Positions 3,055-48,705 of a stretch of DNA of 64,000 nucleotides are shown in pieces. The notes below the pieces were generated by a model that was not told the origin of the DNA, did not search any database, and was given only the letters and a program-made list of their open reading frames with translations. The position numbers and the translations under genes were made by a program. How positions within the stretch are numbered: the stretch's first letter is position 1; each line of letters opens with the position of its first letter. The stretch is from an uncultured bacterium (lineage in GTDB: Bacteria > Eisenbacteria > RBG-16-71-46): NCBI GenBank assembly GCA_964434945.1, contig CAYSWZ010000073.1, positions 13,938 through 77,937 of the forward strand, given 5' to 3'.

Positions 3055-5477
3055 ACCTGCGGCGCGCCGCCGCGTGCGCGGCGCTGGTCGTGTTCCTGTG
3101 CAACGGCCGGGCGTACGCCTCCGCGCTCACGCCGGCCCAGCCGCTGGTCCTCTACGGCGACGAGAGCGTCGCGAGCACGGACGATGCACGCGCGTACCTG
3201 GTGAATCCCGCGGCCATCGGCCAGCGCTACCCGGGCGAACTGCTCCTGGCGTGGGCGCGGCGCGACGAGAAGCACGAGTGGAACACCGGCGTGGGCACGT
3301 GGCGGCGGCTGGCGTTCGGGTTCACGCGGCAGCGCGACACGTCCCAGACCTACGGCATCGGCTTTTCCGCCGGCAGCCCGCGCGTCCGCTTCGGCTGGTC
3401 CGGCTACCTGCTGGTTGCGGGCCAGCCGCAGCGCGAACGCGACCTCGACGATCGCGTCGGCATGCTCGTCCGGCCGGCGCCGTGGGGCAGCGCCGGATTC
3501 ACCGTCGCGCACCTGTTCGAGCCGGAGTTCCGCGGGCGGCGGTTGTCGCGCGAGTACACGATCGGGGCGGGGCTGCGGCCCCTCGCCTGGTGGCGCGAGC
3601 AGGCGGGCGATGCCGGCACGCGCTTCACGCTGAGCGCCGACGTGACGATGGTGGACGACGGTGACTGGGGGCAGTCGCGCGTGCGCGTCACCGGCACGCT
3701 CGAGGTGCTCCGCGGCCTCGAGTTGCGGGCGACCGCCGGGGACCACCGTTCGCTCGCATTCGGGGTGACGGTGCGCGGCGTGCGTGCCAGCGCCAGCGCC
3801 GCACAGGCACGAGTCGACGGGGACCGTGCCTACGAGAGCTACGCGATTTCGTCGCACGCGGGCGAGGACCGCGCGCTCGTGGTCCCGAGCTCGAGCCGGC
3901 GCGTCGCGCTCGTGCGCATAGGCGGTGCGCTGGCGGACGAGGCGCTGGGGGGCGGGCTCCTGGGCGGAGGAGGCGCGCGGCCGTCCGCCCCGCTCCAGCA
4001 GCAGCTCGAGCGTGCGCTCCGCGACCCGCTCACGCGCGGCGTCTTCCTGGAGCTCGACGGCGTCACCGGCATGGCACAGCTCGAGGAGTTGCGGCCGCGC
4101 CTCGTCCAGTTGAAGAACGCGGGCAAGCCGGTCGTGGCCTGGATGCAGTACGGCGGCGGTCGTGGCGACCTCTACCTGGCGAGCGCCGCGTCGAAGGCGT
4201 ACGTGTCGCCGGCGGCCGAGTTCCGGGGGCTGGGACTGCGCGCCGAGCGCCGCTATTACAAGCACGCGCTCGCGAATCTCGGCATCAAGGTGGACCGCGT
4301 CAGCGTGGGCGATTTCAAGAGCGCGTACCGGAATCTGAGCGTGGATTCCACCCCGCCGGCCGACACCGCGGTCATCCAGCGCCTGCTCACGCAGCGCCAG
4401 GAGCTGTTCGTGCACGCGGTGGCGAGCGGCCGCAGCGTCGCGCCGGAACGGCTGCTGCCGGTGCTCGACGGACGCGACTACGAGGGCCGGGCGCTGGCGC
4501 GAGCCGGGCTCATCGACTCCGTGGGCTGGCGCGAGGACGCGCTCGCGGAGCTGGGACGGCTCACCGCGCTCGGGCGGAAGCCGCGCACGGTGGACCTGCT
4601 CCGCGCGCCGGAGGCGCGCGTGCGCTGGAACGAGCCGGCGCGGATCGCGGTGGTGTACGCGGGCGGCGCGATCGTGGACGGCAAGAGCGGCAACGACCCG
4701 CTGGACGGCGGCGTGATGGGCGACCAGACGATCACCGCCCAGCTCGAGCGCGCGTTCCACACCCGGGGTGTGAAGGCGATCGTGCTGCGCGTGGAGAGCC
4801 CGGGCGGCTCCGCGGGCGCCTCCTACCTCATGGACCACGCGGTCGAACGACTGCGGCGCGAGACGGGCAAGCCGGTGGTGGTGTCGATGGGCTCGGTCGC
4901 CGCGAGTGGCGGCTACTTCATGGCGGTGCACGCGAACAGGATCTACGCCGACCGGAACACGGTGACGGGCTCGATCGGGGTGTTGTTCCTGAAGCCGTCG
5001 TTCGAGGGCATGTACGCCAAGCTGGGTGTGCACGAGGACGACTTCGACCGCGGCGACTACATGCGCGCGCTGTCCCCCGCCCGGGATTGGCGGCCGCGCG
5101 ACCAGGCGGCGGCGGACAGCGCCATCAAGCGCCTCTACCGCACGTTCGTGGACCGCGTGAGCAGCGGGCGCAATCTCGAGCACATCGAGGTCCAGAGCCG
5201 CGCGCAGGGCATTCCCTGGCTCGGCGACGAGGCGGCCGACTACCGGTTGATCGACGGGATCGGTGGGCTCGACGCGGCGATCTCCGAAGCCCGCCGACTG
5301 GGCGGCATCCCGGCAAACGAGAAGATCTCGCTCCTCGAGTTCCATCACCCGCGCGGGTCACTGTTCGAACGCGTGGTGGGCTCGTGGCTCCAGGGCTACG
5401 CGGCGGACCAGCTCCACGTTCACGACGTGACGCTCGCGCAGGCGAGGGCCGAAGACTGGGTCGACGAGCTGGAGTGA
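3051..5477 (+). CDS. sppA: signal peptide peptidase SppA, 67K type, with an extra N-terminal domain
   Basis: GTG at 3051 overlaps the nth stop (GTGA). Signal-like VNLRRAAACAALVVFLCNGRAYA. Two S49 repeats: GKPVVAWMQYGGGRGDLYLASAA, and IVLRVESPGGSAGAS...VVVSMGSVAASGGYFMA with the catalytic Ser context. The upstream part of track ORF 2538..5477 is a shadow of nth. Confidence 0.85.
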   Translation: MNLRRAAACAALVVFLCNGRAYASALTPAQPLVLYGDESVASTDDARAYLVNPAAIGQRYPGELLLAWARRDEKHEWNTGVGTWRRLAFGFTRQRDTSQTYGIGFSAGSPRVRFGWSGYLLVAGQPQRERDLDDRVGMLVRPAPWGSAGFTVAHLFEPEFRGRRLSREYTIGAGLRPLAWWREQAGDAGTRFTLSADVTMVDDGDWGQSRVRVTGTLEVLRGLELRATAGDHRSLAFGVTVRGVRASASAAQARVDGDRAYESYAISSHAGEDRALVVPSSSRRVALVRIGGALADEALGGGLLGGGGARPSAPLQQQLERALRDPLTRGVFLELDGVTGMAQLEELRPRLVQLKNAGKPVVAWMQYGGGRGDLYLASAASKAYVSPAAEFRGLGLRAERRYYKHALANLGIKVDRVSVGDFKSAYRNLSVDSTPPADTAVIQRLLTQRQELFVHAVASGRSVAPERLLPVLDGRDYEGRALARAGLIDSVGWREDALAELGRLTALGRKPRTVDLLRAPEARVRWNEPARIAVVYAGGAIVDGKSGNDPLDGGVMGDQTITAQLERAFHTRGVKAIVLRVESPGGSAGASYLMDHAVERLRRETGKPVVVSMGSVAASGGYFMAVHANRIYADRNTVTGSIGVLFLKPSFEGMYAKLGVHEDDFDRGDYMRALSPARDWRPRDQAAADSAIKRLYRTFVDRVSSGRNLEHIEVQSRAQGIPWLGDEAADYRLIDGIGGLDAAISEARRLGGIPANEKISLLEFHHPRGSLFERVVGSWLQGYAADQLHVHDVTLAQARAEDWVDELE

Positions 5478-5520
5478 CGACTCGCTCGCTCGTTCGCCAA
5501 CGGGTTCGCAACGTCCGGGT

Positions 5521-5680
5521 CGCGCCGGCGGGGTGCGGGGCATGCTGAATACGGGCAACGCTCGGTCCGGCCATCCATGGCCGGCCCTCCCTGACGCGCG
5601 TTTAACGGCCTCCGCCATTCCATAGCTCCGGCCTACGCGCGACTGCCCGCATTCAGCACGCCCCGCACCCCACCGGCGCG
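5521..5680 (+). repeat. composite palindromic intergenic element, copy A (36-nt inverted arms plus 88-nt conserved core)
   Basis: Arms 5521-5556 and 5645-5680 pair at 33/36 positions. Core 5557-5644 (AACGCTCGGTCCGG...ACGCGCGACT) recurs at 37283-37368 and, reverse-complemented, at 48587-48674. Confidence 0.85.
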
Positions 5681-5712
5681 CCGATAGTTGTCACCCTCGC
5701 CGAACGGCTCGC

Positions 5713-6450
5713 TCAGTGCGCGAGTAGCTCGTTGCGGAGGCGGGTGGACCAGGGGCTTGCGGGGTCGATGGCGAGGTAGCGCTGGGCGAGGGCGAGGGCT
5801 TCGGGGCGGCGGGCGACCTCGGCGAGGAGTTGGGCGCGGTTGTAGAGCGCGGGCAGGTATTCGGGGTCCGTGGCGTCCACGGCGGCGAACTGGGCGATGG
5901 CCCGCAGCATGAGCTCGCGACGCTGCCAGGTGTCGGTCGTGCGCTCGGCATCGAGCGCGAGCGCCACGCCCCAGCCGAGGCGGCCCTCCCCGTAGTGCGG
6001 GGCGCGCTCGCAGGCCTCGCGATAGTGGCTCGCGGCGCTGGCGTAATCGTGGCGGACGAGCGCCAGCGCGCCGAGCGCAGCACGCACGCGCGGCTCACGC
6101 GGGTGGCGGCGCGTCCAGTGGCGAAGCGCCAGCTCGGCGGCCTGGGCGCGCGCGAGCTCGGCATGATCGCTGGTGCGCCCCGCGGGCTCGCCCCCCAGCG
6201 CCGCGGCGCGGAATCGGAGGCCGGCGGTGACCACGCCGAGCGAAGCATCGGGGAGCCCGATCGAGGCGAGCAGCGCGGGATCGTCGGGAAGCCCCGCCGG
6301 ATGCGCGGGCCGGAACCACAGCGAGACGCCGGCGAGCGACAGCAGGAGCGCCAGGATCCCGAGGAACACCATGGCCGGGAGCGCGGGCCAGCGCAGGCGT
6401 CGTTCGAACTCGACCACGTGCGGCGACGGGCTGGGGGACACGGGGAGCAT
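5713..6450 (-). CDS. membrane-anchored TPR-like repeat protein
   Basis: 245-aa ORF with one N-terminal TM helix (PAMVFLGILALLLSLAGVSLWF), followed by helical repeats rich in A/L/R/Y (ASHYREACERAPHYGEGRLGWGVALA, YNRAQLLAEVARRPEALALAQRYLAIDP). Confidence 0.6.
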   Translation of the reverse strand: MLPVSPSPSPHVVEFERRLRWPALPAMVFLGILALLLSLAGVSLWFRPAHPAGLPDDPALLASIGLPDASLGVVTAGLRFRAAALGGEPAGRTSDHAELARAQAAELALRHWTRRHPREPRVRAALGALALVRHDYASAASHYREACERAPHYGEGRLGWGVALALDAERTTDTWQRRELMLRAIAQFAAVDATDPEYLPALYNRAQLLAEVARRPEALALAQRYLAIDPASPWSTRLRNELLAH

Positions 6451-7250: not shown

Positions 7251-8498
7251 ATGGCGCTCGCCCGCTTCCTGCAGATCTCCGACCTGCACCTGGGCCGCCC
7301 GTTCGCATGGCTGCCCCCGGAGCGGCGTGACCTGCGCCGGCGCGACCAGCACTCCGCGCTCGAGCAGATCGTCAAGCATGCGATCGAGCGCGACGTGCAC
7401 GCCATCCTGGTGCCTGGCGACCTGTTCGACGGCGTGCCGGTGGACACCGGTTCGCTCACGTTCGCCGTGCGCGCGTTCTCCGTTCCGGGTTGCCCGCCGG
7501 TGTTCATCGCGCCCGGCAACCACGACCCCGCGTCCACCGACAACGCGGCGTGGAACACGCGGCTGCAGCAGGCGCGCGGCACGCACTGGCCGTCGCACGT
7601 GCACGTGTTCGACTCCCCGCGCTGGAGCGCGGTCCCGCTCGGCACGCTACCGGGCGTGCGCATCTGGGGGCGCGCATTCCTGACCAGTTCCGGCACCATG
7701 GATCGACCGCTCGCGAAGGCTGCGCTCGAAGGGGTCATCGTGAGCGAGCCCGGGACGCTCGACGTGGCGGTGTTCCACGGATCCCGGGAGGGGCGCTGTC
7801 CCCCGGCCCAGAAGATCACCGCGCCGTTCAGCGACGCGGAAGTCACCGCGTCGCCGTTCGTCTATCACGCCGTCGGCCACTACCACCTGCGCTCCGAGAT
7901 CGAGCAGCGACCGGGGGGAGGCACCCCGTCGCACGGGGTTCGGCTGGCCTACGCGGGCTCGCCGGTCGCGCTCGACTACACCGAACCGGGCGACCACGGC
8001 GCACTCGAGGTGCTCGCGCGTTTCGACGACCACGAATGCGTGGTCGGCGTGGAGTCCATCAAGCTCGATCGCCGCCGCGTGATCTCGGCCCAGGCCGATG
8101 TCACCGGCTGCGCGAGCCCCGAGCAGGTCGACCGCCGCATCCTGCACGCCTACGCTGCGGCGGGCGTCTCGGAGCACGATTTCGTCAAGCTCACGGTCAT
8201 CGGCCGGCTCATGCCGGGTGTGCGCTGGCTGTCGCCGGGTCGCGACGTGTTCGCGCGTTCGTTCAACGTCCGCTGGGATCGGAGCGCAGTGCGTCCCGAT
8301 CACGACCTCGACGTCCTGCGGAAGAGCGAGGGACGCACCACGGAGGAGCGTTTCGCGCTCGAGATGCTGCGGCAGATCGACGCCGAGTCGGACTCCGAGC
8401 AGCGGGTCGCGCTGCAGCGCGCGCTCTACTACGGCCTCGACGCCTTCCGCGTGCGCGAGGTGGTGCCGCAGTGGGAAGAGGTGGAGGTCTCGGAATGA
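7251..8498 (+). CDS. SbcD/YhaO-like metallophosphoesterase (DNA repair exonuclease subunit)
   Basis: Calcineurin-like motifs ISDLHLG, VPGDLFD and IAPGNHD at the N-terminus. The stop overlaps the start of the following ATPase (ATGA at 8495-8498). Confidence 0.85.
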   Translation: MALARFLQISDLHLGRPFAWLPPERRDLRRRDQHSALEQIVKHAIERDVHAILVPGDLFDGVPVDTGSLTFAVRAFSVPGCPPVFIAPGNHDPASTDNAAWNTRLQQARGTHWPSHVHVFDSPRWSAVPLGTLPGVRIWGRAFLTSSGTMDRPLAKAALEGVIVSEPGTLDVAVFHGSREGRCPPAQKITAPFSDAEVTASPFVYHAVGHYHLRSEIEQRPGGGTPSHGVRLAYAGSPVALDYTEPGDHGALEVLARFDDHECVVGVESIKLDRRRVISAQADVTGCASPEQVDRRILHAYAAAGVSEHDFVKLTVIGRLMPGVRWLSPGRDVFARSFNVRWDRSAVRPDHDLDVLRKSEGRTTEERFALEMLRQIDAESDSEQRVALQRALYYGLDAFRVREVVPQWEEVEVSE

Positions 8499-11380
8499 AG
8501 CTGCTGCACCTCAGGGTGGACGGCTTCGGGGCGCTGCAGGGCGAGTGGACGTTCGCGCCCGAGCGCGTCAACGTGATCCTCGACGACAACGAGCGCGGCA
8601 AGTCGTCGCTGTTCGCCGCGGTCGCGGCGGCCCTGTACGGGCTGGACGGGGACCGCCGCTCGCACCGCGTCCTCACGCCGCTCGAACGCTGGCGGCCGTG
8701 GAACGGCGGGCCGTTCCGGGTCGCGCTCGATGTGGAGTGCGTGGACGGCGTCTACACGATCTCGCGCGACTTCGACCGCGGCGTGATCGCCGTGTTCGAT
8801 CGCAGCGGCGGCGAGGTGACCGAGCAGTTCCTCGAGGGGCGCGACGAATACCCGGTGGGGAAGAAGCTGCTCGGGCTGGACCGCGAGGAGTTCGAGAAGG
8901 TCGCGCTCCTCATGCAGGGCGAGCTCGACGAGGTGGTGCCGAGCGACGAGAAGGCGCGCCGCGCCTCGACCCTGAAGAGCCGTCTCGAGAACGCCGCCGA
9001 CACGCACATCGGCGATACGAACGCGTCCGAGGCGCTGCGCGTGCTCGAGGAATCGCTGCGCAAGTTCAACGCCCAGGAGCTGGAGTTCACCGGCACCATC
9101 GACAACGCCATCGACCGGCTGGCCGCCAAGCGCGAGCTGATCGAGGTCGACATCCGCGAGCTGGACGCCACGCTGATCATCGCGCAGGCGCCGTTGAACG
9201 ACCTGCACCGGCTGGCGAAGGAGGAGCGCACGCTCCAGGACTCGCTGCTCCAGCTCGAGAACGAGCGCCGGGCGGGGCTGGCGGTGGACGTGCGCCGCCA
9301 GCTCGAGGACCACGAGAAGGCGCTCGCGGAGGTGTCCCGGCTCGAGGCCGAGGCCGGCGGCCTGGCCGCTTCGGCGAACCTGCCGCCGAACGCCGAGGGC
9401 GAGTTGCGCGAAACCATCGCGCGTCACGAGGAGGCGATCCGCGGCATCGAAGGGCTGGAGGCGCGTCGCCGCGACGAGCTGGCGCGCGAGCGCGAATCGA
9501 TCGCGCGTGAACGCGCCGAGCTGGCCGCCTACGATTCGTTCACGCCCGAGGACGCCGACCGCTGCGTTGCGCAGGCCTCGGAGCTGCGCCACCTGCTGAT
9601 GCAGGACGCGCTGCTGCGACACCAGGTCTTCGAGCTGCGCGACGTGCTCGCGGGCAAGGGGCACGAACCGGAGAAGATCCAGTTCCTGCAGCAGCGCTTC
9701 GGCACCCTGCCGCCGGAGAGCGTGCGCCTGCTGCGGCAGCAGGCCGAGTTGAACCTCCAGTTCCAGAACGAATCGGCCGCGCTCGAGCACGGCCGCGCCG
9801 CCGCCACCGAGACGCTGCGCGAAGTCGATGCCTCGCGCGTCGCCCGGCGCACGCCGGGCTGGGTGCTGGTGGGGCTCGGCGCCGCGGCCGTGCTGGCGAG
9901 CGGCGTGGTGGTTCTGCTCGCCGCCTCGCCGACGCTGAGCCTCGGGCTCCTCGCCGCGGGCGTCGTGGTCGCGGGCACGGGCGGGGTGCTGCTGGTGACC
10001 GGCGCACGTTCGCGGCGCGAGGACCGCGAGGAGGCCATGGCGAGGCTCGCGGACTCGCAGACCCGGATCAACGCGCTCCACCGCCGCCGGGCGGAGAACG
10101 AAGCCGGGCTCAGTGACCTGGCGCGCATGATGGGCTACCGGGACAGCGTGGAGCTGCTGCGGCAATTCGGCGAGTACGCGCGATTGCTGGAGGACTCGGG
10201 GCCGCTGTTGCGCGTGCAGGAGCAGCTCGCGGCCGCAGAGGAGCGACGCGTGACGATGGTGAAGATGCTCGAGCCGATGCTCAAGGTCGCGCGCGGCGGC
10301 ACGATCACGCCCGAGCTGCTCGACAAGGTCGCGTACGAGGCGCGGCGGTCGCTGAACGCGCGCCAGCGGCTCGCCGACCTCGAGCGCGGGTTCGGCTGGG
10401 TCGAGGAGGAGAAGCGCGCGCTCGAGGCCGCCGCGAATTCGATGAAGGAGCGCGCGCTCCGCCTGCTGCAGGCCGCCGGCATCGCCTACGAGCCGGAGCG
10501 CGGCTGGGCGTTCCACGTGAGCGAGTTGAAGCGTCGCATGGAGGGCCGGGTGCGCTACGGCATGGTGGTCGAGGAGCTCATTCCCGCGGCGCGGCGCCGG
10601 CTCCACCCCGACCACGAGGTGGCGCAGCGGCGCCGCCAGCTCGAGATGCTCATGGCCGGCGGCGACCTGCCCGCGAACGCGCGCTCGTCGACCGAGATCG
10701 AGATGGAGGTGAAGCAGACGCGCAGCAAGCTGGAGGAGACCCAGCGCCGCCGCGCGGACGTGCGCGTCGAGGTGGAGGAGGTGTGGCGCCGGCACGCGCA
10801 GCGCCGGCCCGAGCTGGGCCAGCAGCAGGAACGCCTCGGACGCGCCATCGAGCGCGCGAGGAAGTTCAAGCAGTCGGTGGAGATCGCCCGCGACACCATC
10901 CAGCGCGTGGCCATGGATACGCATCGCAAGTGGGCGGACTTCCTGAACGACCGCGTGGCCGGGATCCTCGGCTCGTTCGGCTCGTCCGTGGAGGGCCTGC
11001 GCTTCGGTGAGGACCTCGACTTCTCCGTCCAGTTGGACGGCGGCCCGCTCGTCTCCCGCGGCAAGGCGCACGCCCAGCTCTCGGCCGGGGCGCGCGACCA
11101 GCTGTACCTCGCCGTGCGGCTCGCGATCAGCGAGTTCCTCTCGCGCGGGACGGAGCCGTTGCCGCTGCTGCTCGACGACGTGTTCGCCACGAGCGACGAC
11201 CAACGCCTGCGCGCCGGCATGCGGGCACTGATCGAGAGCTTCGGCGCGGGCCACCAGTTGCTGATGACGACCTGCCACCGGAGCCGCATGCTCGAACTGC
11301 AACGACTCGACCCCGAGCTCTACCGGGACCGCGTCCACTGGGTGGACCTGGGCATCGGCATGGGGGTGGACGGGCGGTAG
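8495..11380 (+). CDS. Rad50/SbcC/YhaN-like AAA ATPase with long coiled coils and a central transmembrane hairpin
   Basis: Walker A NERGKSSL, signature LSAGARDQLYLAVRLA, Walker B LPLLLDDVF. About 800 aa of E/R/L/A-rich coiled coil are interrupted by WVLVGLGAAAVLASGVVVLLAASPTLSLGLLAAGVVVAGTGGVLLVTGA (about 9859-10005). Confidence 0.85.
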   Translation: MKLLHLRVDGFGALQGEWTFAPERVNVILDDNERGKSSLFAAVAAALYGLDGDRRSHRVLTPLERWRPWNGGPFRVALDVECVDGVYTISRDFDRGVIAVFDRSGGEVTEQFLEGRDEYPVGKKLLGLDREEFEKVALLMQGELDEVVPSDEKARRASTLKSRLENAADTHIGDTNASEALRVLEESLRKFNAQELEFTGTIDNAIDRLAAKRELIEVDIRELDATLIIAQAPLNDLHRLAKEERTLQDSLLQLENERRAGLAVDVRRQLEDHEKALAEVSRLEAEAGGLAASANLPPNAEGELRETIARHEEAIRGIEGLEARRRDELARERESIARERAELAAYDSFTPEDADRCVAQASELRHLLMQDALLRHQVFELRDVLAGKGHEPEKIQFLQQRFGTLPPESVRLLRQQAELNLQFQNESAALEHGRAAATETLREVDASRVARRTPGWVLVGLGAAAVLASGVVVLLAASPTLSLGLLAAGVVVAGTGGVLLVTGARSRREDREEAMARLADSQTRINALHRRRAENEAGLSDLARMMGYRDSVELLRQFGEYARLLEDSGPLLRVQEQLAAAEERRVTMVKMLEPMLKVARGGTITPELLDKVAYEARRSLNARQRLADLERGFGWVEEEKRALEAAANSMKERALRLLQAAGIAYEPERGWAFHVSELKRRMEGRVRYGMVVEELIPAARRRLHPDHEVAQRRRQLEMLMAGGDLPANARSSTEIEMEVKQTRSKLEETQRRRADVRVEVEEVWRRHAQRRPELGQQQERLGRAIERARKFKQSVEIARDTIQRVAMDTHRKWADFLNDRVAGILGSFGSSVEGLRFGEDLDFSVQLDGGPLVSRGKAHAQLSAGARDQLYLAVRLAISEFLSRGTEPLPLLLDDVFATSDDQRLRAGMRALIESFGAGHQLLMTTCHRSRMLELQRLDPELYRDRVHWVDLGIGMGVDGR

Positions 11381-11614: not shown

Positions 11615-12529
11615 GTGGCCGCGAAGGCATGTGACATGTCCCGCTCGTTCCGCGCCGCCGTGAGCTGGCTGCTCGCCGCCGAGGCGTGCTACGCCGTCAT
11701 GCGCGTGTCGACCCGCATGAGCGCCTCGGTGAGCACGCTCCCGTGGGCGGAGATCGCCGCGGTGCGCTTCCTCGGCGGCTCGCTCGTGCCGCTTGCGTCC
11801 GCGGGCCTGCGCCGCGTTCCGCTGCGGGTGGAGGACACGCGCAACGCCTGGCTGCGATCCGCGTTCGGCACCGGCGGCGCCCTCGCGCTCTTCTACACGC
11901 TCGGCACGCATGCCCTGTCCGTGGGTGACGCCACCACGCTCTATTCCACGGCGCCACTGTGGGTGGCGCTACTGTCGGGCCCGATCCTGGGCGAACAGGT
12001 GGGAGCGGTCGTCTGGCTCGCCGTGCTCGCGGGCTTCGCCGGCGTGGTGACGCTGCTCCACGCGGGCGTGGACAGCGTCGGCCCGACCGGCGCGATCATG
12101 CTGGCCGGGGCGCTCAGCTACGCGCTCGCGGTGATCCGGGTGCGGAGACTCTCGACGCGCGAGTCGAGCGAGGCGATCGGCTTTCACATGTCGCTCACCG
12201 CCGGCGGCGTCATGCTCCTGATCGCGCTCCCGAACCTGCAGCGGATCCCCGCGGCGGCCATGCCGCCGCTCGCGGCGAGCGCGCTCGCCGGCGGCCTCGG
12301 CCAGACCATCGTCGCCCGGGCCTACGCGCGCGAGCCGGCATCGCGGCTGGCCGCGTTCAGCTACGCGGGCGTCGTGTTCACCTATCTCCTCGAGGCGGCG
12401 CTCTTCCGTCGCGTACCGGAGCCGCACCAGGTCGCGGGCGCGCTGATCGTGATCGGCGCCGGCGTGGCGGTGTCGTTGCTGGCCGCGGCCCGGGCGGACG
12501 CGCCCGCACCGCGTTCGCACGCGGAGTAG
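11615..12529 (+). CDS. EamA/DMT family transporter
   Basis: About 10 hydrophobic segments in two EamA-like halves (FLGGSLVPL..., LWVALLSGPILGEQV, AGALIVIGAGVAV). Alternative start at 11636. Confidence 0.85.
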   Translation: MAAKACDMSRSFRAAVSWLLAAEACYAVMRVSTRMSASVSTLPWAEIAAVRFLGGSLVPLASAGLRRVPLRVEDTRNAWLRSAFGTGGALALFYTLGTHALSVGDATTLYSTAPLWVALLSGPILGEQVGAVVWLAVLAGFAGVVTLLHAGVDSVGPTGAIMLAGALSYALAVIRVRRLSTRESSEAIGFHMSLTAGGVMLLIALPNLQRIPAAAMPPLAASALAGGLGQTIVARAYAREPASRLAAFSYAGVVFTYLLEAALFRRVPEPHQVAGALIVIGAGVAVSLLAAARADAPAPRSHAE

Positions 12530-16346: not shown

Positions 16347-16817
16347 CTACCGATCCATGGACTGCGGCGGGGAACCCGACCCCCCGCCCACGGGGCGGAT
16401 CAGGAACGAACTCAGGATCAGCGCCACGCCGACCGCGGCGGGGATCAGGCCGACGGTCCAGACCCTGCCGCCGTCGTTCCCGTCCGCGACCTCGTGCAGG
16501 AAGATCGACAGGGCGACTCCCACGAACAGCGTCACGATGCCGCCGATCAGGATGCCCTGGCGGCGGTGCTCCGCGACCACGACCGGATCGCCGAACATGC
16601 GGTTGTCGTCGAAGATGATCGGGCGCTGCAGGCTCGCGATCTTGTCGGGATCGAGCCCGCGCTCGATGGCCGCGATGCGCTCGCGCTGGATCATCTCGAA
16701 CGCGCGCTGGCGCTGCATCGTGCGCACGATCCCGGCGGTGATCCCGCCGACGATGGCGACGATGGGGATGCTGAGCGCCATCAGCGGGATCAGCGAATCG
16801 GTGTCGAAATCGAACAT
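16347..16817 (-). CDS. small integral membrane protein (3 predicted TM helices)
   Basis: 156 aa. Hydrophobic segments LIPLMALSIPIVAIVGGITAGIV, ILIGGIVTLFVGVALSIFL and VGLIPAAVGVALILSSFLI. Divergent from the ECF sigma gene. Confidence 0.65.
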   Translation of the reverse strand: MFDFDTDSLIPLMALSIPIVAIVGGITAGIVRTMQRQRAFEMIQRERIAAIERGLDPDKIASLQRPIIFDDNRMFGDPVVVAEHRRQGILIGGIVTLFVGVALSIFLHEVADGNDGGRVWTVGLIPAAVGVALILSSFLIRPVGGGSGSPPQSMDR

Positions 16818-17033
16818 GGCGGGCCTCCGCGGCGGCTGGGGTGGTGGACGTTGTCTCGAACGCCCATTGTGACCGGGAGAGGCCCGGATCGGGTTTCAGG
16901 GGTCGTGCTCGGAAGATTGCGGATGAGCCCGTTTTCGAGGGGTTGTACGCCAACAGGTCTATGTACCACAATCACTTATGTGGGCAGTCTCCCCCACCAG
17001 CAATCTTCCGCGCACAACCCTTAGGCTGCCGGG

Positions 17034-17657
17034 ATGCAACCCGAGCCGCCCCTGGACCCGTCCAAGCGAGCGATGGCCCCGACGCCCGCGCTCCATCCCG
17101 AGGCCGCGAGGATGGCGGACGAGCGCCGGCTCATCGCAGGGGCGCAGTCGGGCGACACGGCCGCGTTCCGTGTGCTGGTCGAACGGCATCAGGCGCGCGC
17201 GGTCGCGCTCGCGCTGCGCATCGTCCGCTCGGCGCCGGACGCGGAGGAAGTCGCGCAGGATGCGTTCGTGCGGGTTTGGACGGCGCTCCCCGGCTTTCGT
17301 GGAGAGTCGAGTTTCGCGACGTGGCTGTACCGGATCGTGGCGCGGCGCGCGTTCGACCGGGTGGACGTGCTGAAGCACCGGCGTGCGCGCGAGCGGGCGG
17401 AGGAGAAGCTGCCCGAGCCCGTCGCACCCGCGCCGGCGGACGACGACACGTTACGGGCGGCGCTGCTGCAACGGCTGGTGGCGGACCTCTCACCCGCGCA
17501 ACGGTCGGTGGTGACGATGTTCTACTACGAGGGACGGTCGGTGGAGCAGGTCTCGGCGATCCTCAACATGCCGGAGAACACGGTGAAGACGCACCTGCTG
17601 CGCGCGCGTGCCGCGCTGCGCACGGCGTGGACACACGAGCTGGGAGAAGAAGCGTGA
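17034..17657 (+). CDS. ECF-type RNA polymerase sigma-70 family factor
   Basis: Region 2 FRVLVERHQARAVALALRIVRSAPDAEEVAQDAFVRVW...ATWLYRIVARRAFD and region 4 SPAQRSVVTMFYYEGRSVEQVSAILNMPENTVKTHLLRARAAL. Possible later start at 17112. Confidence 0.9.
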   Translation: MQPEPPLDPSKRAMAPTPALHPEAARMADERRLIAGAQSGDTAAFRVLVERHQARAVALALRIVRSAPDAEEVAQDAFVRVWTALPGFRGESSFATWLYRIVARRAFDRVDVLKHRRARERAEEKLPEPVAPAPADDDTLRAALLQRLVADLSPAQRSVVTMFYYEGRSVEQVSAILNMPENTVKTHLLRARAALRTAWTHELGEEA

Positions 17658-37251: not shown

Positions 37252-37399
37252 GGCGGGGGTGCGGGGGGTCTCGCTCGAGGCGAACGCTCGGTCCGGACCT
37301 CCTGTCCGGACCTTCGCTGACGCTCGCGACGGCCTCCGCCATTCCATGGCTGCGGCCTGCTCGCGACTCGCCTCGAGCGAGACCCCCCGCACCCCCGCC
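37252..37399 (+). repeat. composite palindromic intergenic element, copy C (31-nt perfect inverted arms plus 86-nt core)
   Basis: Arms 37252-37282 (GGCGGGGGTGCGGGGGGTCTCGCTCGAGGCG) and 37369-37399 are perfect reverse complements. Core 37283-37368 is homologous to 5557-5644. Confidence 0.85.
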
Positions 37400-43482: not shown

Positions 43483-44205
43483 ATGCGTGTGTCGAAGGCG
43501 ATGCGGGACCTGCCGGCGTGGACGCTCGTGTTCACGCTGGCCGCGGCGGGCAGCGCGTCCGCCCAATGCCAGAGCTGTGATCCGTTCCTCCACTGCGCCG
43601 TCTCGTCCCTGGGAGGGGCGATGGTGTGCGTCGAGGGCCCGGGCAGTTGCGCGCTGGTCCTTCCCTGCCCGCACGGCCGCGGTCGCATGCCGGACCTCAT
43701 GGGCGATGCGGACCTGACCACGTGGACGTTGTTCGACGCCGGGGCGGTCCCCCGCACCGGCCGCACCTCACTGCGGACCACCGCCGGGAGCCTCGCGCTC
43801 GGCGACGGCGCGCGCGTGAGCCTGTCCGCGCCGTTCATGGGCGGTGCGATCGCCGATGCGGCGCTGGTGCACGGGCGCGAATACGCGATCGTGCTGGCGG
43901 ACGCCGCCGGTGACGGCTTCGCGCTCAAGCGCGCGGTGGAGGGCTCGCGGGTGCGGATCGAGGTGCGTGAGGTGCGCGGGGATGTCCCGGGGGCGTTGCT
44001 CGCGAGCGAGGCGCTCGGCGAACACGACCAACTGCGTGTCCCGGTGCGCGTCGACGGACGCGAGCGGGTGATGGTGTTGCAGGCTGCGGGCGTGAATGGC
44101 GGGAGCGCAGCGATGGAGCTGGCGCGACTCCGCCAGGCGCTGCAGGCCGCCGGCCTTCGCCTGCCGCGGCGGCAGGAGCCGCTCCTGCGCCTCCGCGCGC
44201 TGTGA
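43483..44205 (+). CDS. secreted hypothetical protein with Cys-rich N-terminal segment
   Basis: AGGAGCAGG RBS. Signal MRVSKAMRDLPAWTLVFTLAAAGSASA. Mature N-terminus QCQSCDPFLHCAVSSLGGAMVCVEGPGSCALVLPCPHG has 7 Cys. The remainder is Ala/Arg/Gly-rich, so confidence is moderate. Confidence 0.55.
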   Translation: MRVSKAMRDLPAWTLVFTLAAAGSASAQCQSCDPFLHCAVSSLGGAMVCVEGPGSCALVLPCPHGRGRMPDLMGDADLTTWTLFDAGAVPRTGRTSLRTTAGSLALGDGARVSLSAPFMGGAIADAALVHGREYAIVLADAAGDGFALKRAVEGSRVRIEVREVRGDVPGALLASEALGEHDQLRVPVRVDGRERVMVLQAAGVNGGSAAMELARLRQALQAAGLRLPRRQEPLLRLRAL

Positions 44206-44235
44206 CCGGGCGCCGGCGGGACCGGGGCGCGCGCC

Positions 44236-45279
44236 TCAGTCCCGCCGGCGACGGGCTCCGACGCGCGCGGCGAACACGACCGCGAACAACACCAGCGCGA
44301 GGATCCCGACCACCACCGGCGTCCAGCGGTGCGGCAGGCGCTCGAGCAGGATGGCCGCGCCGCCGAACAAGGCCGAGAGCGTCCACAGCACGGCGAGGAC
44401 GGCGCGCGGCGACAGCCCCGTGTCGAGCAGGCGATGGTGGATGTGCCCGGCGTCCCCCTGGAACACGTGCCGGCCGCGCGCGAGCCGGCGCACGAACGCC
44501 AGCACGCCATCCGCGATCGGCAGTCCGAGCGCCACCAGCGGCAGCAGCAGCGTGAGTGCCGCGGTGCCCTTGCGGTTCTCGAGCAGCGACAGCGCGGACA
44601 ACGTGAGGCCGAGGAACTGGCTGCCGGTGTCGCCCATGAACACGCGGGCGGGCGGGCGGTTCCACCACAGGAACCCGCCGCACGCGCCGAGGAGCAGCGC
44701 GGCCACGAACATGACGTAGAAGTCGCCGTGTCCGCGCGCGGTCACCCACAGTGCGCCGCACGCGATCGCCACCAGGCCCGCGGCCAGTCCGTCCAGGCCA
44801 TCGATCAGGTTGATGGCGTTGGTGAGCATGATCACCCACAGCACAGTGAGCGGCACGCTCCACGCGCCGGTCACGATCGCCTGGCCGAACGGGTTCGTGA
44901 GCAGCGGTACGCCGTAACCGAACATCACGAGCACGAGCGCGGCACACGCCTGCACGGCGAGCTTGCCCCACGGTCCCGCACCGCGCACGTCGTCGAACAC
45001 CCCCAGCGCGAGGATCGGCAGCGCGGCGAACGTGAGACCGAGGAGCGGGCGCGCCTCCAGCTCGCGCGCCGGTCCGGGCAGCAGGCGTGCGACCCATGCC
45101 ACCGACAGCACCGCGGCGGCGATCGCGAGCCCGCCGAAGCGGGGCGTGGGATCACGGTGGATGCGCCGCGGTCCGGGGTGGTCCACCGCCCCCACCCGCA
45201 CCGCCAGCGACCGGGCGACCGGCGTCAGCGCCAGGGCCACCGCGCCGGAGGTGAGTGCGAGCGTCAGCGAATAGGGCAT
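44236..45279 (-). CDS. polyprenyl-phosphate N-acetylhexosamine-1-phosphate transferase (GT4 / WecA-MraY family)
   Basis: About 10-11 TM segments. Motifs GVFDDVRG, NAINLIDGLDGLAAG and VFMGDTGSQFLG. Start ATG overlaps the GT2 stop. Confidence 0.9.
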   Translation of the reverse strand: MPYSLTLALTSGAVALALTPVARSLAVRVGAVDHPGPRRIHRDPTPRFGGLAIAAAVLSVAWVARLLPGPARELEARPLLGLTFAALPILALGVFDDVRGAGPWGKLAVQACAALVLVMFGYGVPLLTNPFGQAIVTGAWSVPLTVLWVIMLTNAINLIDGLDGLAAGLVAIACGALWVTARGHGDFYVMFVAALLLGACGGFLWWNRPPARVFMGDTGSQFLGLTLSALSLLENRKGTAALTLLLPLVALGLPIADGVLAFVRRLARGRHVFQGDAGHIHHRLLDTGLSPRAVLAVLWTLSALFGGAAILLERLPHRWTPVVVGILALVLFAVVFAARVGARRRRD

Positions 45280-48555: not shown

Positions 48556-48705
48556 GGGTGGTCGCCGAGGGGTTCAAATCCTGGCGAGTCGCGCGCAGGC
48601 CGGAGGCAGGGACTGCCGGAGGCCGTCAAGCGCGCGTCAGGGAGGTCCGGGCAGGGATGCCCGGACCGAGCGTTCGCCATGATTTGAACCCCTCGGCGAC
48701 CACCC
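48556..48705 (-). repeat. composite palindromic intergenic element, copy B (31-nt inverted arms plus 88-nt core, inverted orientation)
   Basis: Perfect 25-bp inverted repeat 48556-48580 / 48681-48705, extending to 31 nt with one mismatch. Core 48587-48674, read on the minus strand, is 76/88 identical to 5557-5644. Confidence 0.85.

Follow-up and report, generated by a model that had tools for sequence, protein, structure and literature searches.

The element at positions 5521-5680 of the window, the 64,000-nt stretch of DNA that was analyzed here, is one member of a family of palindromic repeats, non-coding and dispersed, that has not been described before. Covariation and predicted folding show that one defined strand would adopt a Y-shaped three-way junction, in which a long stem (P1) is tipped by two conserved hairpins (P2 and P3). 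The pattern of conservation is inside-out: the interior is kept, and the arms are free to vary but stay paired. Dispersed palindromic repeats such as REP, ERIC, and MITEs shape bacterial genomes. To our knowledge, the mechanism by which most of them spread is unsettled, and almost nothing is known for uncultured phyla. The present family amounts to a natural experiment, with ~70 independent copies of free stem sequence and retained pairing, a conserved two-hairpin junction, and a 7-10:1 strand signature showing the folding strand. It makes testable the existence of a cognate enzyme resembling HUH proteins or RAYT (REP-associated tyrosine transposase), the recognition of a three-way junction, and selection versus template switching in the upkeep of the arms.

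Copies in the window and in related genomes

The window contains three copies and no more (5521-5680, 37252-37399, and 48556-48705), which the covariance model R1 scored at 148-151 bits as compared to 18.5 bits for the next match. The same three copies are the highest-ranking inverted repeats of the whole window, where reverse-complementary 14-mer pairs lying 60-220 nt apart number 31 (0-2 in shuffled sequences). Their parts are as follows.

5521-5680, minus strand (folded strand is window minus): copy A, whole element, 148.3 bits with R1
5521-5556, strand not applicable: copy A left arm, one strand of P1, pairing with 5645-5680 at 33/36 positions
5645-5680, strand not applicable: right arm of copy A, second strand of P1, pairing with the left arm
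5557-5644, minus strand: copy A conserved core of 88 nt, two hairpins and junction strands (nhmmer E=1e-21; alignment)
5564-5587, minus strand: copy A hairpin P3, GGnCCGGCC / GGCCGGnCC, with loop (A/U)GGA(U) on the folded strand
5595-5641, minus strand: copy A composite hairpin P2 (fold and covariation)
37252-37399, minus strand: second copy, arms 37252-37282 and 37369-37399 pairing at 31/31 positions
37283-37368, minus strand: core of the second copy, with P3 at 37290-37312 and P2 at 37321-37365
48556-48705, plus strand (folded strand is window plus): third copy, arms 48556-48586 and 48675-48705 pairing at 30/31 positions
48587-48674, plus strand: core of the third copy, with P2 at 48590-48636 and P3 at 48644-48667

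Copy A lies between two convergent genes, one encoding SppA/peptidase S49 (plus strand, ends 5477) and the other a TPR protein (minus strand, ends 5713). This siting had been given in a preliminary description of the locus, along with the 33/36 pairing of the arms, the recurrence of the core at 37283-37368 (+) and 48587-48674 (-), and a core identity of 76/88 between copy A and the copy at 48587; all of these agree with our recomputed coordinates and counts. The arm and hairpin sequences quoted there are likewise correct, its copy B being the one at 48587 and its copy C the one at 37283. The three arm mismatches of copy A (5529/5672, 5542/5659, and 5551/5650) are A-C in every case when read on the plus strand, as had been claimed, and the part of the left arm that matches the family-typical 31-bp arm is 5526-5556. 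P2 of copy A is built from a CGCGCG helix, a GGCC/GGCC helix, a GNA/GGA internal loop, and an apical GCCAU/AUGGC helix, and is preceded on the folded strand by GTAG (plus-strand CTAC, 5633-5636).

The preliminary description had proposed counting copies by homology search, and this recovered ~80 further copies from Candidatus Eisenbacteria-type MAGs and soil metagenomes. Across the 0.6 Mb of recovered loci the family counts 81-83 members, each with arms of ~31-33 bp, and it was seen only in Candidatus Eisenbacteria-type soil bacteria. Copies are ~150-160 nt long, non-coding, and scattered between genes. The whole of copy A had no match among plasmids and phages, the core pattern had none among viral contigs, and a search of the literature on repeats of Eisenbacteria found nothing. 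In the Rfam check that the preliminary description had suggested, the window gave no match at gathering thresholds. With permissive settings, the best Rfam match was the plant family MIR1437 (44 bits against a threshold of 168) and RsmW matched a single hairpin at E=8.4, both of which are noise.

Variable arms, conserved core, and the strand that folds

Covariation, folding, and flank counts were carried out on 67 copies. The core measures 85-89 nt in every copy with a median identity of 83%, and the ~31-bp arms have a median identity of 64% between copies yet are paired within each copy. The 16-nt arm segments, which had been called unrelated between copies, are better described as a fast-diverging but recognizably homologous G-rich stem, GGnGGGGTGnGGGG..TCGCGAnnGnGGSS, with stem bases that read GGnGGGG/CCCCnCC; the earlier wording was thus overstated. 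The target search proposed for these variable segments, which tests them as guides or spacers, yielded only chance-level 11-13-mers in the rest of the window. Two-sided changes were found in 40 of the 48 pairs across the 67 copies, including 30 of the 31 arm pairs. Paired cells amount to 90.8%, falling to 38-46% when the partners are slid, and compensatory cells number 628 as compared to 204 in shuffles (0/500). The helices of P2 and P3 covary too. The proposal of conserved loops and junctions joined by co-varying stems, made from three copies, is borne out by 67 independent ones.

Relative to the core as written in the preliminary description, the strand that folds is the reverse complement. 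On this strand, P1 would be a ~31-bp stem of variable sequence and retained pairing, and the conserved junction strands read 5'-AGU, CAGGGAGG, and GAGCGUU. G(C/T)AG stands 5' of P2, which carries the GNA/GGA internal loop, and the loop of P3 contains GGA. The tetranucleotide in front of the GGCC hairpin is GCAG in 48/67 copies and GTAG in 19/67, with G, A, and G invariant; the sequence of the GTAG sub-type is GTAGGCCGGA..... The inner part of P2 spans ~29-31 nt with an internal loop and P3 spans 22-26 nt, and the duplicating unit is the whole ~155-nt structure. Unpaired regions are all purine-rich, consisting of the GNA/GGA internal loop, the GGA/GGGA/AGGAA loops, and the CAGGGAGG junction, and tandem G·A is present within P2.

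The preliminary description had noted that the three arm mismatches of copy A would be wobble pairs in a minus-strand transcript. This hint holds in the larger sample, where 75 arm mismatches could form G·U on the reverse strand and 11 on the forward strand (n=86, p=7e-13). Well-aligned rows give 63 versus 6 for the same type of wobble, and the inner helices give 19 versus 2. The reverse strand is predicted to be the more stable in 67/67 copies with RNA parameters, by a mean of 8.8 kcal/mol, and in 65/67 with DNA parameters; for copy A, the minimum free energy is -132.7 kcal/mol on the minus strand and -113.6 kcal/mol on the plus strand. Polarizing mismatches by nearest relatives gave 18 versus 9 only, a count to which MAFFT indels add noise. 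The polarity follows the element and not its neighboring genes, since the folded strand has the same orientation as the gene whose 3' end faces it in 24 cases and the opposite orientation in 24 (by script). A manual tally of one-sided contexts gave 10 versus 11. Orientation relative to replication, judged by GC skew, was 3 versus 6 on contigs too short for statistical power. Strand-specific folding of this kind could be that of a DNA or an RNA strand.

Genomic setting and dispersal

The element favors the 3' ends of genes, above all convergent junctions (11/16). In the window it occupies 3 of the 8 convergent junctions and 0 of the others, lying 33-75 nt downstream of stop codons. Genes that recur near copies are presumably housekeeping orthologues, which we read from their sequences as TrxB-like, NusA/IF-2, AccC-like, and LptF/G-like. 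The element is found at orthologous junctions in three species, and identity in one orthologous pair is ~98% for the element and ~70% for the intergenic DNA beside it. Downstream of a nitroreductase-like gene the window has one copy and loci L013 and L004 have two, with intergenic DNA too diverged to define an insertion site.

The flanks of the 67 copies contain no direct repeat that would indicate a target-site duplication and show only a preference for C on the left and T on the right (A|element|G on the folded strand). A CT cleavage dinucleotide is not conserved next to the element on the folded strand of these copies, and a conserved CA occurs solely within the core junction (UCAGGGA). The flanks hold no conserved promoter at a fixed distance, no sigma-70-like site, and no conserved upstream motif; T enrichment downstream was absent on either strand of the 67 copies, and no terminator-like site was found in 5300-5900. 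An intrinsic (Rho-independent) terminator was accordingly rejected, there being no U-tract after the element. An independent small RNA gene, such as a CsrB/Rsm-type sponge, was considered for the GGA in all loops and set aside, given the missing upstream motif and terminator and the unmatched Rsm families. More generally, an independent RNA gene is not supported, because there is no conserved promoter or terminator and orientation relative to the neighbors is random.

The element is a dispersed, proliferating repeat. Arms and core together recur at loci with unrelated flanks at 84-92% identity, full copies are adjoined in places by partial copies and local duplications, and neighboring copies are arranged as inverted pairs in 10/10 cases. 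Metagenome contigs terminate inside the element; assemblies of these organisms from metagenomes are interrupted by the repeat, which could also serve as a lineage marker. Arms and core at unrelated loci, contig breaks, and partial and paired copies make a dedicated RNA gene no more likely than a REP/BIME-like mobile or mobilized element. The case for mobility comes solely from paralogous copies, since no empty insertion site was recovered among the loci compared. Five loci (L065, L068, L051, L073, and L038) that had been considered an orthologous sub-family were rejected as such, being non-orthologous loci with conserved outer flanks in common.

The preliminary description had seen no transposase, reverse transcriptase, or Cas gene nearby, and none of these, nor a recombinase or an HUH/Y1 protein, is present among the 36 ORFs of the window. 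No HUH/Y1 transposase or recombinase was matched in the 0.6 Mb of loci by weak tests (phmmer with approximate IS200/IS608 TnpA queries, and a RAYT motif regular expression), and no autonomous partner element was found within the same loci.

Relation to known repeats and possible modes of action

The closest likeness is to REP and BIME sequences, which are also high-copy, extragenic, located at gene 3' ends, and often arranged in inverted pairs or clusters. REPs are recognized as ssDNA, strand-specifically, through GTAG and an often irregular palindrome (PMC8266576). In both, G-N-A-G stands directly 5' of a GC-rich irregular hairpin, the element having GCAG/GTAG followed by GGCC..GGA.., and neither REP/RAYT systems nor the element show a target-site duplication. 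E. coli REPs read GTAGGCCTGATAAG and GTAGGCAGGATAAGG, as compared with the GTAG sub-type of the element (PMC8266576). There are also differences. The element is ~155 nt long, with an outer stem of 31 variable base pairs and a three-way junction bearing two directly oriented hairpins; such an outer stem and junction are not known from any described REP. REP palindromes, perfect or bulged, span about 16-42 nt; the hairpins P2 and P3 lie in this range, and the unit that duplicates is the whole structure. GTAG is found in only 19/67 copies and most carry GCAG, there is no adjoining CT or CA of the kind cleaved in REP/RAYT systems, and no RAYT gene, which in a REPtron would be flanked by the repeats, is present in the window, nor in the 0.6 Mb of loci by weak tests. 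REPINs have conserved REP ends, whereas the element is conserved inside.

Other repeats share fewer features. ERIC/IRU sequences are ~127-bp imperfect palindromes of transcribed intergenic regions in enterobacteria and vibrio, present in both orientations with a conserved central part, and changes in their stems have been reported as compensated and read as function at the single-strand (RNA) level. The element, which we liken to ERIC by description, differs in its unrelated host group, a far more variable stem, and a core that is a two-hairpin junction. Hairpin MITEs (Correia/NEMIS, RUP, BOX, YPAL, Chunjie, and Nezha) are co-transcribed with their neighbors, and their hairpins can be targets of RNase III/E. 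They are likewise 100-200 nt long, non-coding, and dispersed, but have conserved terminal inverted repeats and duplications (TA for Correia), neither of which the element has. IS200/IS605-derived mini-elements (PATEs) resemble it in lacking terminal inverted repeats and duplications and in having sub-terminal hairpins and, if the element does act as ssDNA, a strand-specific ssDNA mechanism. PATEs, however, lack a long outer stem and need a fixed 4-5-nt target next to their left end, whereas the element's flanks show a single-base preference only, and TnpA was not seen in the 0.6 Mb of loci by a weak search. Parvovirus ITRs and the ssDNA origins of rolling-circle plasmids and filamentous phages are similar in architecture only, a long stem with two small hairpins, and are functional as ssDNA in an orientation-specific manner; they are single replicon structures, in contrast to an element dispersed in chromosomes, and have no sequence relation to it.

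Two further candidates were discarded. Integron attC sites occur once in each cassette, in a single orientation, with an R''/R' core (RYYYAAC / GTTRRRY) at the base of the stem; the element has stem bases of GGnGGGG/CCCCnCC, housekeeping neighbors, and both orientations. A tRNA-derived (SINE-like) origin was considered for the T-arm-like GGTTCAAATCC in the arms of the 48587 copy; no tRNA was found in the window (ARAGORN) and the other copies lack the motif.

Our leading explanation, which is tentative, is a new dispersed element of the REP/BIME-like kind, whose action or spread would rely on a single-stranded hairpin of Y shape, probably ssDNA, that a putative structure-specific enzyme handles. 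Propagation, and possibly use by the host, would take place on a single strand, most likely of ssDNA, and the conserved core would be the module recognized by a putative enzyme of the HUH/RAYT or IS200/IS605 type, specific for both structure and strand. All that the long stem would have to do is zip up, joining both ends of the element at the stem base. Complementarity of the arms may be kept by selection for folding and probably also by intrastrand template-switch ("quasipalindrome") correction, and copies would land and persist downstream of genes, as do REP/BIME and ERIC. Among close relatives, double changes in the arms are of the transversion type in 45 cases and of the transition type in 27, and one-sided arm differences comprise 35 G·U, 1 A·C, and 27 others; the arms thus evolve in concert. 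Features typical of RNA include purine-rich loops (GGA and GNRA-like) and tandem G·A pairs, and G·U in RNA pairs better than G·T in DNA; the RNA-typical loops and the G·U preference therefore count against the ssDNA reading. Positional conservation, with retention at orthologous junctions, would fit a host function, which might just as well be exerted by RNA.

A structured RNA element, in which the folded strand acts as RNA and copies spread by some unrelated DNA-level process, is the main rival, possible though somewhat unlikely. It could be a cis element of 3' UTRs or read-through transcripts (3'-end protection, an RNase III site, or a terminator without a U-tract) or an RNA that binds protein, titrating a factor of the CsrA- or SD-binding type through its GGA-rich loops. 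The 7-10:1 excess of G·U over A·C, the greater stability of the folded strand in 67/67 copies with RNA parameters, the purine-rich unpaired regions, and the tandem G·A in P2 are consistent with it, as are the sites just past stop codons (3/8 convergent window junctions) and an element that orthologous junctions keep and that is more conserved than nearby intergenic DNA. However, orientation relative to the facing gene is random (24 versus 24 and 10 versus 11), so the folded strand would be antisense to local transcription in about half of tandem contexts. There is also no conserved promoter, T-tract, sigma-70-like or terminator-like site and no Rfam match, and dispersal would still require a mobile-DNA explanation.

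The remaining proposals fare worse. An ordinary cut-and-paste MITE, in which a transposase from another genomic locus would bind the arms as terminal inverted repeats, is highly improbable. The size, non-coding nature, copy number, intergenic location, ~31-bp inverted arms, and paralogous copies would all suit it, but the arms are the least conserved part (median 64% versus 83% for the core) with each pair co-varying, and only the C...T (folded strand A...G) preference stands where a target-site duplication would be. Strand-asymmetric mismatches are unexpected for a double-stranded substrate, and 0.6 Mb yielded no autonomous partner; the earlier view that this is no ordinary MITE stands, with neither conserved termini nor target-site duplication. 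It had instead favored a structured RNA or a cruciform DNA site, of which the conserved loops and co-varying stems stand; a double-stranded cruciform and an independent RNA gene are not supported. We give very little probability to a site in double-stranded DNA where a cruciform forms and a host protein (nucleoid, gyrase, IHF-like) binds, without passing through a single-stranded stage. It would fit a near-perfect long palindrome, and REP/BIMEs bind such proteins. A cruciform would use both strands equally, so the one-strand bias argues against it; the 75:11 wobble bias, the 67/67 folding bias, and the conserved asymmetric junction strands are left unexplained. Mobility of the 88-nt core alone, inserted into the tip of a palindrome or terminator already present in the host, whose sequence would then supply the arms, is strongly disfavored. 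The copy-specific arms, sites where terminator hairpins are expected, and hairpins near both core ends, as in IS200/IS605, suit it, but the 0.6 Mb of recovered loci contain no "empty" palindrome made of arms alone, the arms share a family pattern and a constant length of ~31-33 bp, the pre-insertion palindromes would be loopless, and sub-families of arms are found at unrelated loci together with the core.

A bolder reading, which we consider unlikely, is that the family represents either a new class of single-strand-acting element with three-way-junction recognition or an abundant, hitherto unseen class of structured RNA of Eisenbacteria with GGA-loop protein binding. In the former case, a putative enzyme (a new HUH/RAYT group or a reverse transcriptase) would recognize the three-way junction instead of the termini, and intrastrand templating would rebuild or proof-read the 31-bp stem in each round, which would explain arms that diverge freely yet are perfectly paired.

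Three copies of a palindromic repeat family

The element at 5521-5680 of the window (copy A) is no artefact, and it represents a new, lineage-restricted family of dispersed noncoding palindromic repeats, which combines a conserved two-hairpin junction with a hypervariable, strictly paired stem of ~31 bp, folds on one defined strand and lies preferentially downstream of genes. Convergent gene pairs enclose all three copies in the window, and the pairing, the convergent neighbors of copy A and the recurrence of its core agree with the preliminary description.

5521-5680 (copy A): 88-nt core 5557-5644; arms 5521-5556 and 5645-5680, paired at 33/36 positions; between the genes for an SppA/S49 peptidase (ends 5477, +) and a TPR protein (ends 5713, -)
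37252-37399: core 37283-37368 (+); arms 37252-37282 and 37369-37399, paired at 31/31; between the genes for an unassigned 749-aa protein (+) and an amidase (ends 37477, -)
48556-48705: core 48587-48674 (-); arms 48556-48586 and 48675-48705, paired at 30/31; between the genes for a nitroreductase-like protein (ends 48513, +) and PmbA/TldD (ends 48727, -)

Also as described, the cores of copy A and the 48587 copy are identical at 76/88 positions, and the arm mismatches of copy A (5529/5672, 5542/5659, and 5551/5650) are each A-C on the plus strand; its core shares 73 identical positions with the 86-nt 37283 core. An inverted-repeat search returned the copies as the strongest inverted repeats of the window (71% G+C), where 31 reverse-complementary 14-mer pairs are spaced 60 to 220 nt apart versus 0 to 2 in shuffles. 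A covariance model scored the three copies at 148 to 151 bits and everything else at ≤18.5 bits. The 18.5-bit match at 12282-12330 (-; E=0.047), which covers model positions 38 to 83 around core hairpin P2, lies within a coding region and is probably due to chance. By the ORF list, the element occupies three of the eight convergent junctions of the window and none of the remaining junctions. Another convergent junction, between genes ending at 44205 (+) and 45279 (-), carries an overlapping GC-rich palindrome at 44194-44267 (41 nt, 78% complementary), which is unrelated in sequence and may be a terminator-like hairpin of its own junction. A different inverted repeat at 16900-17020, with 26-nt arms (85% complementary) around a distinctly AT-richer 69-nt center, has no relation to the family; it sits where a DUF6249 gene (16347-16895, -) and an ECF sigma-factor gene (17025-17657, +) diverge and may represent a small RNA or a regulatory site.

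Of the 29 loci returned by a pattern scan of a species-representative genome collection, nine were true matches, on contigs of Candidatus Eisenbacteria bacterium SMAG_U211 (five), the uncultured bacterium bin binchicken_co165_69 (three), and 'bacterium VAR_34_metabat_33' (one); the others were chance matches in other phyla. A metagenome scan yielded 59 contigs from soil and rhizosphere, and the element was absent from the viral contigs, phage records, and plasmids searched. The 0.6 Mb of recovered loci (handles beginning with L) contain 81 core matches by nhmmer and 83 by covariance model, of which 67 are unique copies with complete flanks. Over several kb of collinear genes, the window is 83 to 86% identical to the SMAG_U211 contig L013, 72 to 79% to L004, and 73 to 84% to L008, which makes its source a related organism of the Eisenbacteria type. 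Many contigs start or end with the element; a JGI contig with the exact window amidase gene ends ~160 nt beyond that gene, within the 37252-37399 copy, as assemblers behave at repeats.

Consensus fold and folded strand

The arms have a modal length of 31 to 33 bp in every copy and a sharp outer boundary. Only one base is preferred per side, C before and T after in the orientation in which the core was originally read (A and G, respectively, on the other strand), and the flanks of the 67 copies contain no direct repeat and thus no target-site duplication. Median pairwise identity is 0.64 for the arms, close to background, and 0.83 for the core; the arms are the fast-evolving part and the core is the conserved part. 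Since a loose G-rich pattern is still common to the arms, the segments originally called unrelated are diverged homologues rather than unrelated inserts. RNAalifold, applied to an unfitted MAFFT alignment of the 67 copies, predicted a three-way junction.

Parts of the predicted consensus fold
P1: the two arms
P2: composite hairpin with a CGCGCG or CGCGAGC helix, a GGCC/GGCC helix, and a GNA/GGA internal loop
P2 apex: 4-5-bp helix, loop GGA/GGGA
P3: GGnCCGGCC/GGCCGGnCC, loop (A)GGA(N)
Junction strands: AGU (66/67), (U/A)CAGGGAGG, and GAGCGUU

The co-varying stems reported earlier hold across the alignment, with two-sided changes in 40 of 48 pairs and many compensated variants for the P2 apical helix and likewise for P3. 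Paired cells amount to 90.8%, as compared to 69.9% after shuffling and 38 to 46% with partners slid by 1 to 3 columns, and there are 628 double-change cells versus 204 ± 12 in shuffles, 0/500 of which reach 628. Support from covariation is overwhelming.

The earlier hint of minus-strand wobble, which was based on three mismatches, generalizes. When the two arms of each copy were aligned with each other (2048 Watson-Crick pairs), 75 mismatches were A·C in the original reading orientation, which are G·U on the reverse strand, versus 11 of the opposite kind (binomial p 7e-13), with 65 other mismatches. Thirty-seven copies lean to reverse-strand wobble and two the other way; the count on well-aligned rows of the family alignment is 63 versus 6, and that for the inner helices is 19 versus 2, with 14 copies contributing a U·G at a single P2 pair. 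The reverse strand is also lower in predicted free energy in 67/67 copies with RNA parameters (mean -8.8 kcal/mol) and is favored in 65/67 with DNA parameters. Taken together, the wobble and free-energy biases place the folded strand on minus for copy A and the 37283 copy and on plus for the 48587 copy. Every unpaired region on the folded strand is purine-rich with GGA motifs.

The genomic context is non-random: the gene ends that face a copy comprise 48 3' ends and 22 5' ends, and 11/16 fully resolved contexts are convergent. Relative to genes with a facing 3' end, the element is oriented the same way in 24 cases and oppositely in 24 (10 versus 11 in a manual tally of one-sided contexts only). 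The flanks of the 67 copies have no fixed-distance conserved motif, AT-rich box, or T-run on either side, and consensus scans around copy A found no promoter-like or terminator-like sites. Random orientation and featureless flanks indicate that strandedness is intrinsic to the element.

Candidate mechanism and known relatives

We infer that the element acts or spreads single-stranded. Our tentative preference, held at somewhat below an even chance, is that it would be ssDNA handled by a REP/RAYT- or IS200/IS605-like enzyme. The main rival is a role as a structured RNA, which we rate a little lower. Intrinsic strandedness disfavors a cis-RNA whose sense is dictated by the upstream gene, and likewise the simple double-stranded cruciform site proposed earlier.

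Mechanistically, the closest counterpart is the REP/BIME-RAYT system. REPs are recognized strand-specifically as folded ssDNA; a GTAG tetranucleotide immediately 5' of a palindrome of about 16 to 42 nt, either perfect or internally irregular, mediates recognition, and cutting occurs at a nearby CT (PMC8266576). On the folded strand of the present family, the tetranucleotide before the P2 GGCC hairpin, which contains the internal loop, is GCAG in 48 copies and GTAG in 19; P3 is preceded by GGAG. The GTAG sub-type reads GTAGGCCGGA..., and two E. coli REPs beside yaaX read GTAGGCCTGATAAG and GTAGGCAGGATAAGG; this likeness is a resemblance, short of demonstrated homology. The differences are substantial: unlike a REP, the element has a variable 31-bp outer stem, forms a three-way junction with two hairpins in direct orientation, mostly carries GCAG instead of GTAG, has no flanking CT, and has no RAYT among the window ORFs or by a weak motif search of the 0.6 Mb.

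Consistent with the preliminary description, the 36 window ORFs include no transposase, reverse transcriptase, or Cas protein, nor an HUH protein. Six-frame ORFs of the 0.6 Mb gave no phmmer match to a Y1 transposase, a weak test with IS200/IS608 TnpA queries, and no match to a RAYT-motif regex, also a weak test. Genes recurring near copies in the recovered loci appear to be housekeeping orthologues, which from their sequences are presumably TrxB-like, NusA/IF-2, AccC-like, and LptF/G-like. The suggested search of the variable arm segments for targets found none within the window. The element has no Rfam match and is not an already named family. In line with the preliminary description, it does not qualify as a classical MITE, for it lacks conserved termini and target duplication. 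It nonetheless belongs to a known kind of element and is not categorically new. The nearest phenomenological parallel is ERIC/IRU, a long palindrome that occurs in either orientation and whose stem changes are reported to be compensated. With parvoviral ITRs and ssDNA origins, the present element has only a T/Y-hairpin architecture in common.

Copying and turnover

Paralogous copies in unrelated flanks (e.g., L067/L071, L077/L088, L083/L048, and L001/L064) have arms 84 to 92% identical and cores about 90% identical, which indicates that arms and core are copied together. Landing of the core in pre-existing hairpins was rejected, as the 0.6 Mb of recovered loci contains no arm-only palindromes. 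The 48587 core shares 96.6% identity with a SMAG_U211 copy that is not orthologous (L024) and only 85% with the copy at its orthologous junction (L013 3664-3751), and the arms at the orthologous 48587/L013/L004 junction are almost completely different among the three. About 10 arm positions distinguish copy A from the copy at the matching location in L008, each mirrored on the opposite arm. This clash between positional and sequence orthology would reflect either site re-occupation or sequence exchange by conversion. For one pair of clear orthology, L069/L054, identity is about 98% within the element and about 70% in adjacent intergenic DNA, which points to in-situ constraint or homogenization.

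Among close relatives, completed double changes (45 transversion-type, 27 transition-type) are as frequent as intermediates (35 G·U, 1 A·C, 27 other). By analogy with quasipalindromes, for which template-switch correction is known, this suggests that the two arms may be corrected against each other. Partial copies (an arm and the first ~16 nt of core) and 25-58-nt arm/flank duplications adjoin full copies (L013 3385-3428; upstream of L068 4431-4583; L036/L056; L054 9400-9480), the pattern expected of slippage or template switching at a hairpin. Decayed copies exist as well: L063 968-1087 spans the whole model in 120 nt, with the first half of the core deleted internally.

Two-copy loci (L007, L013, L011, L004, L071, L087, L069, L057, L054, and L058; also L081 at a contig start) show the same inverted arrangement in 10/10 cases, some of them mutually orthologous and hence fewer independently, with copies 12 to 161 nt apart, cores that converge, and folded strands that diverge. 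None of these loci has a tandem or oppositely inverted pair, and paired copies often differ in core and arm sub-type. One sub-family (L065 335-489, L051 6024-6178, L073 10158-10313, L068 4431-4583, and L038 1010-1162) carries additional conserved outer flanks, with CGCGCCCTCGTCTGCGTC on one side and TCGACTCCCCGATGGCGCTGGGATGAA on the other, and about 60 to 70 nt beyond the right arm its left flank recurs in inverted orientation, which makes a larger nested, BIME-like mosaic. On four contigs (L024 1007-1162, L051 6024-6178, L065 335-489, and L077 4675-4827), the element lies immediately upstream of a gene that we take, from its CATCDG motif, to be thioredoxin-reductase-like; these copies have different arms and occur in both orientations to the gene, a position that persists while the element itself turns over or inverts.

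Two genes downstream of copy A, 7490-11380 gives a weak SbcC/Rad50-like match, made up of Pfam SbcC_Walker_B (E=4.4e-05, 24.1 bits) plus two AAA domains, none of which reaches the curated cut-offs. SbcCD is a nuclease that attacks DNA hairpins and palindromes. The proximity is probably coincidental; the match bears on how the genome tolerates many perfect 31-bp palindromes.
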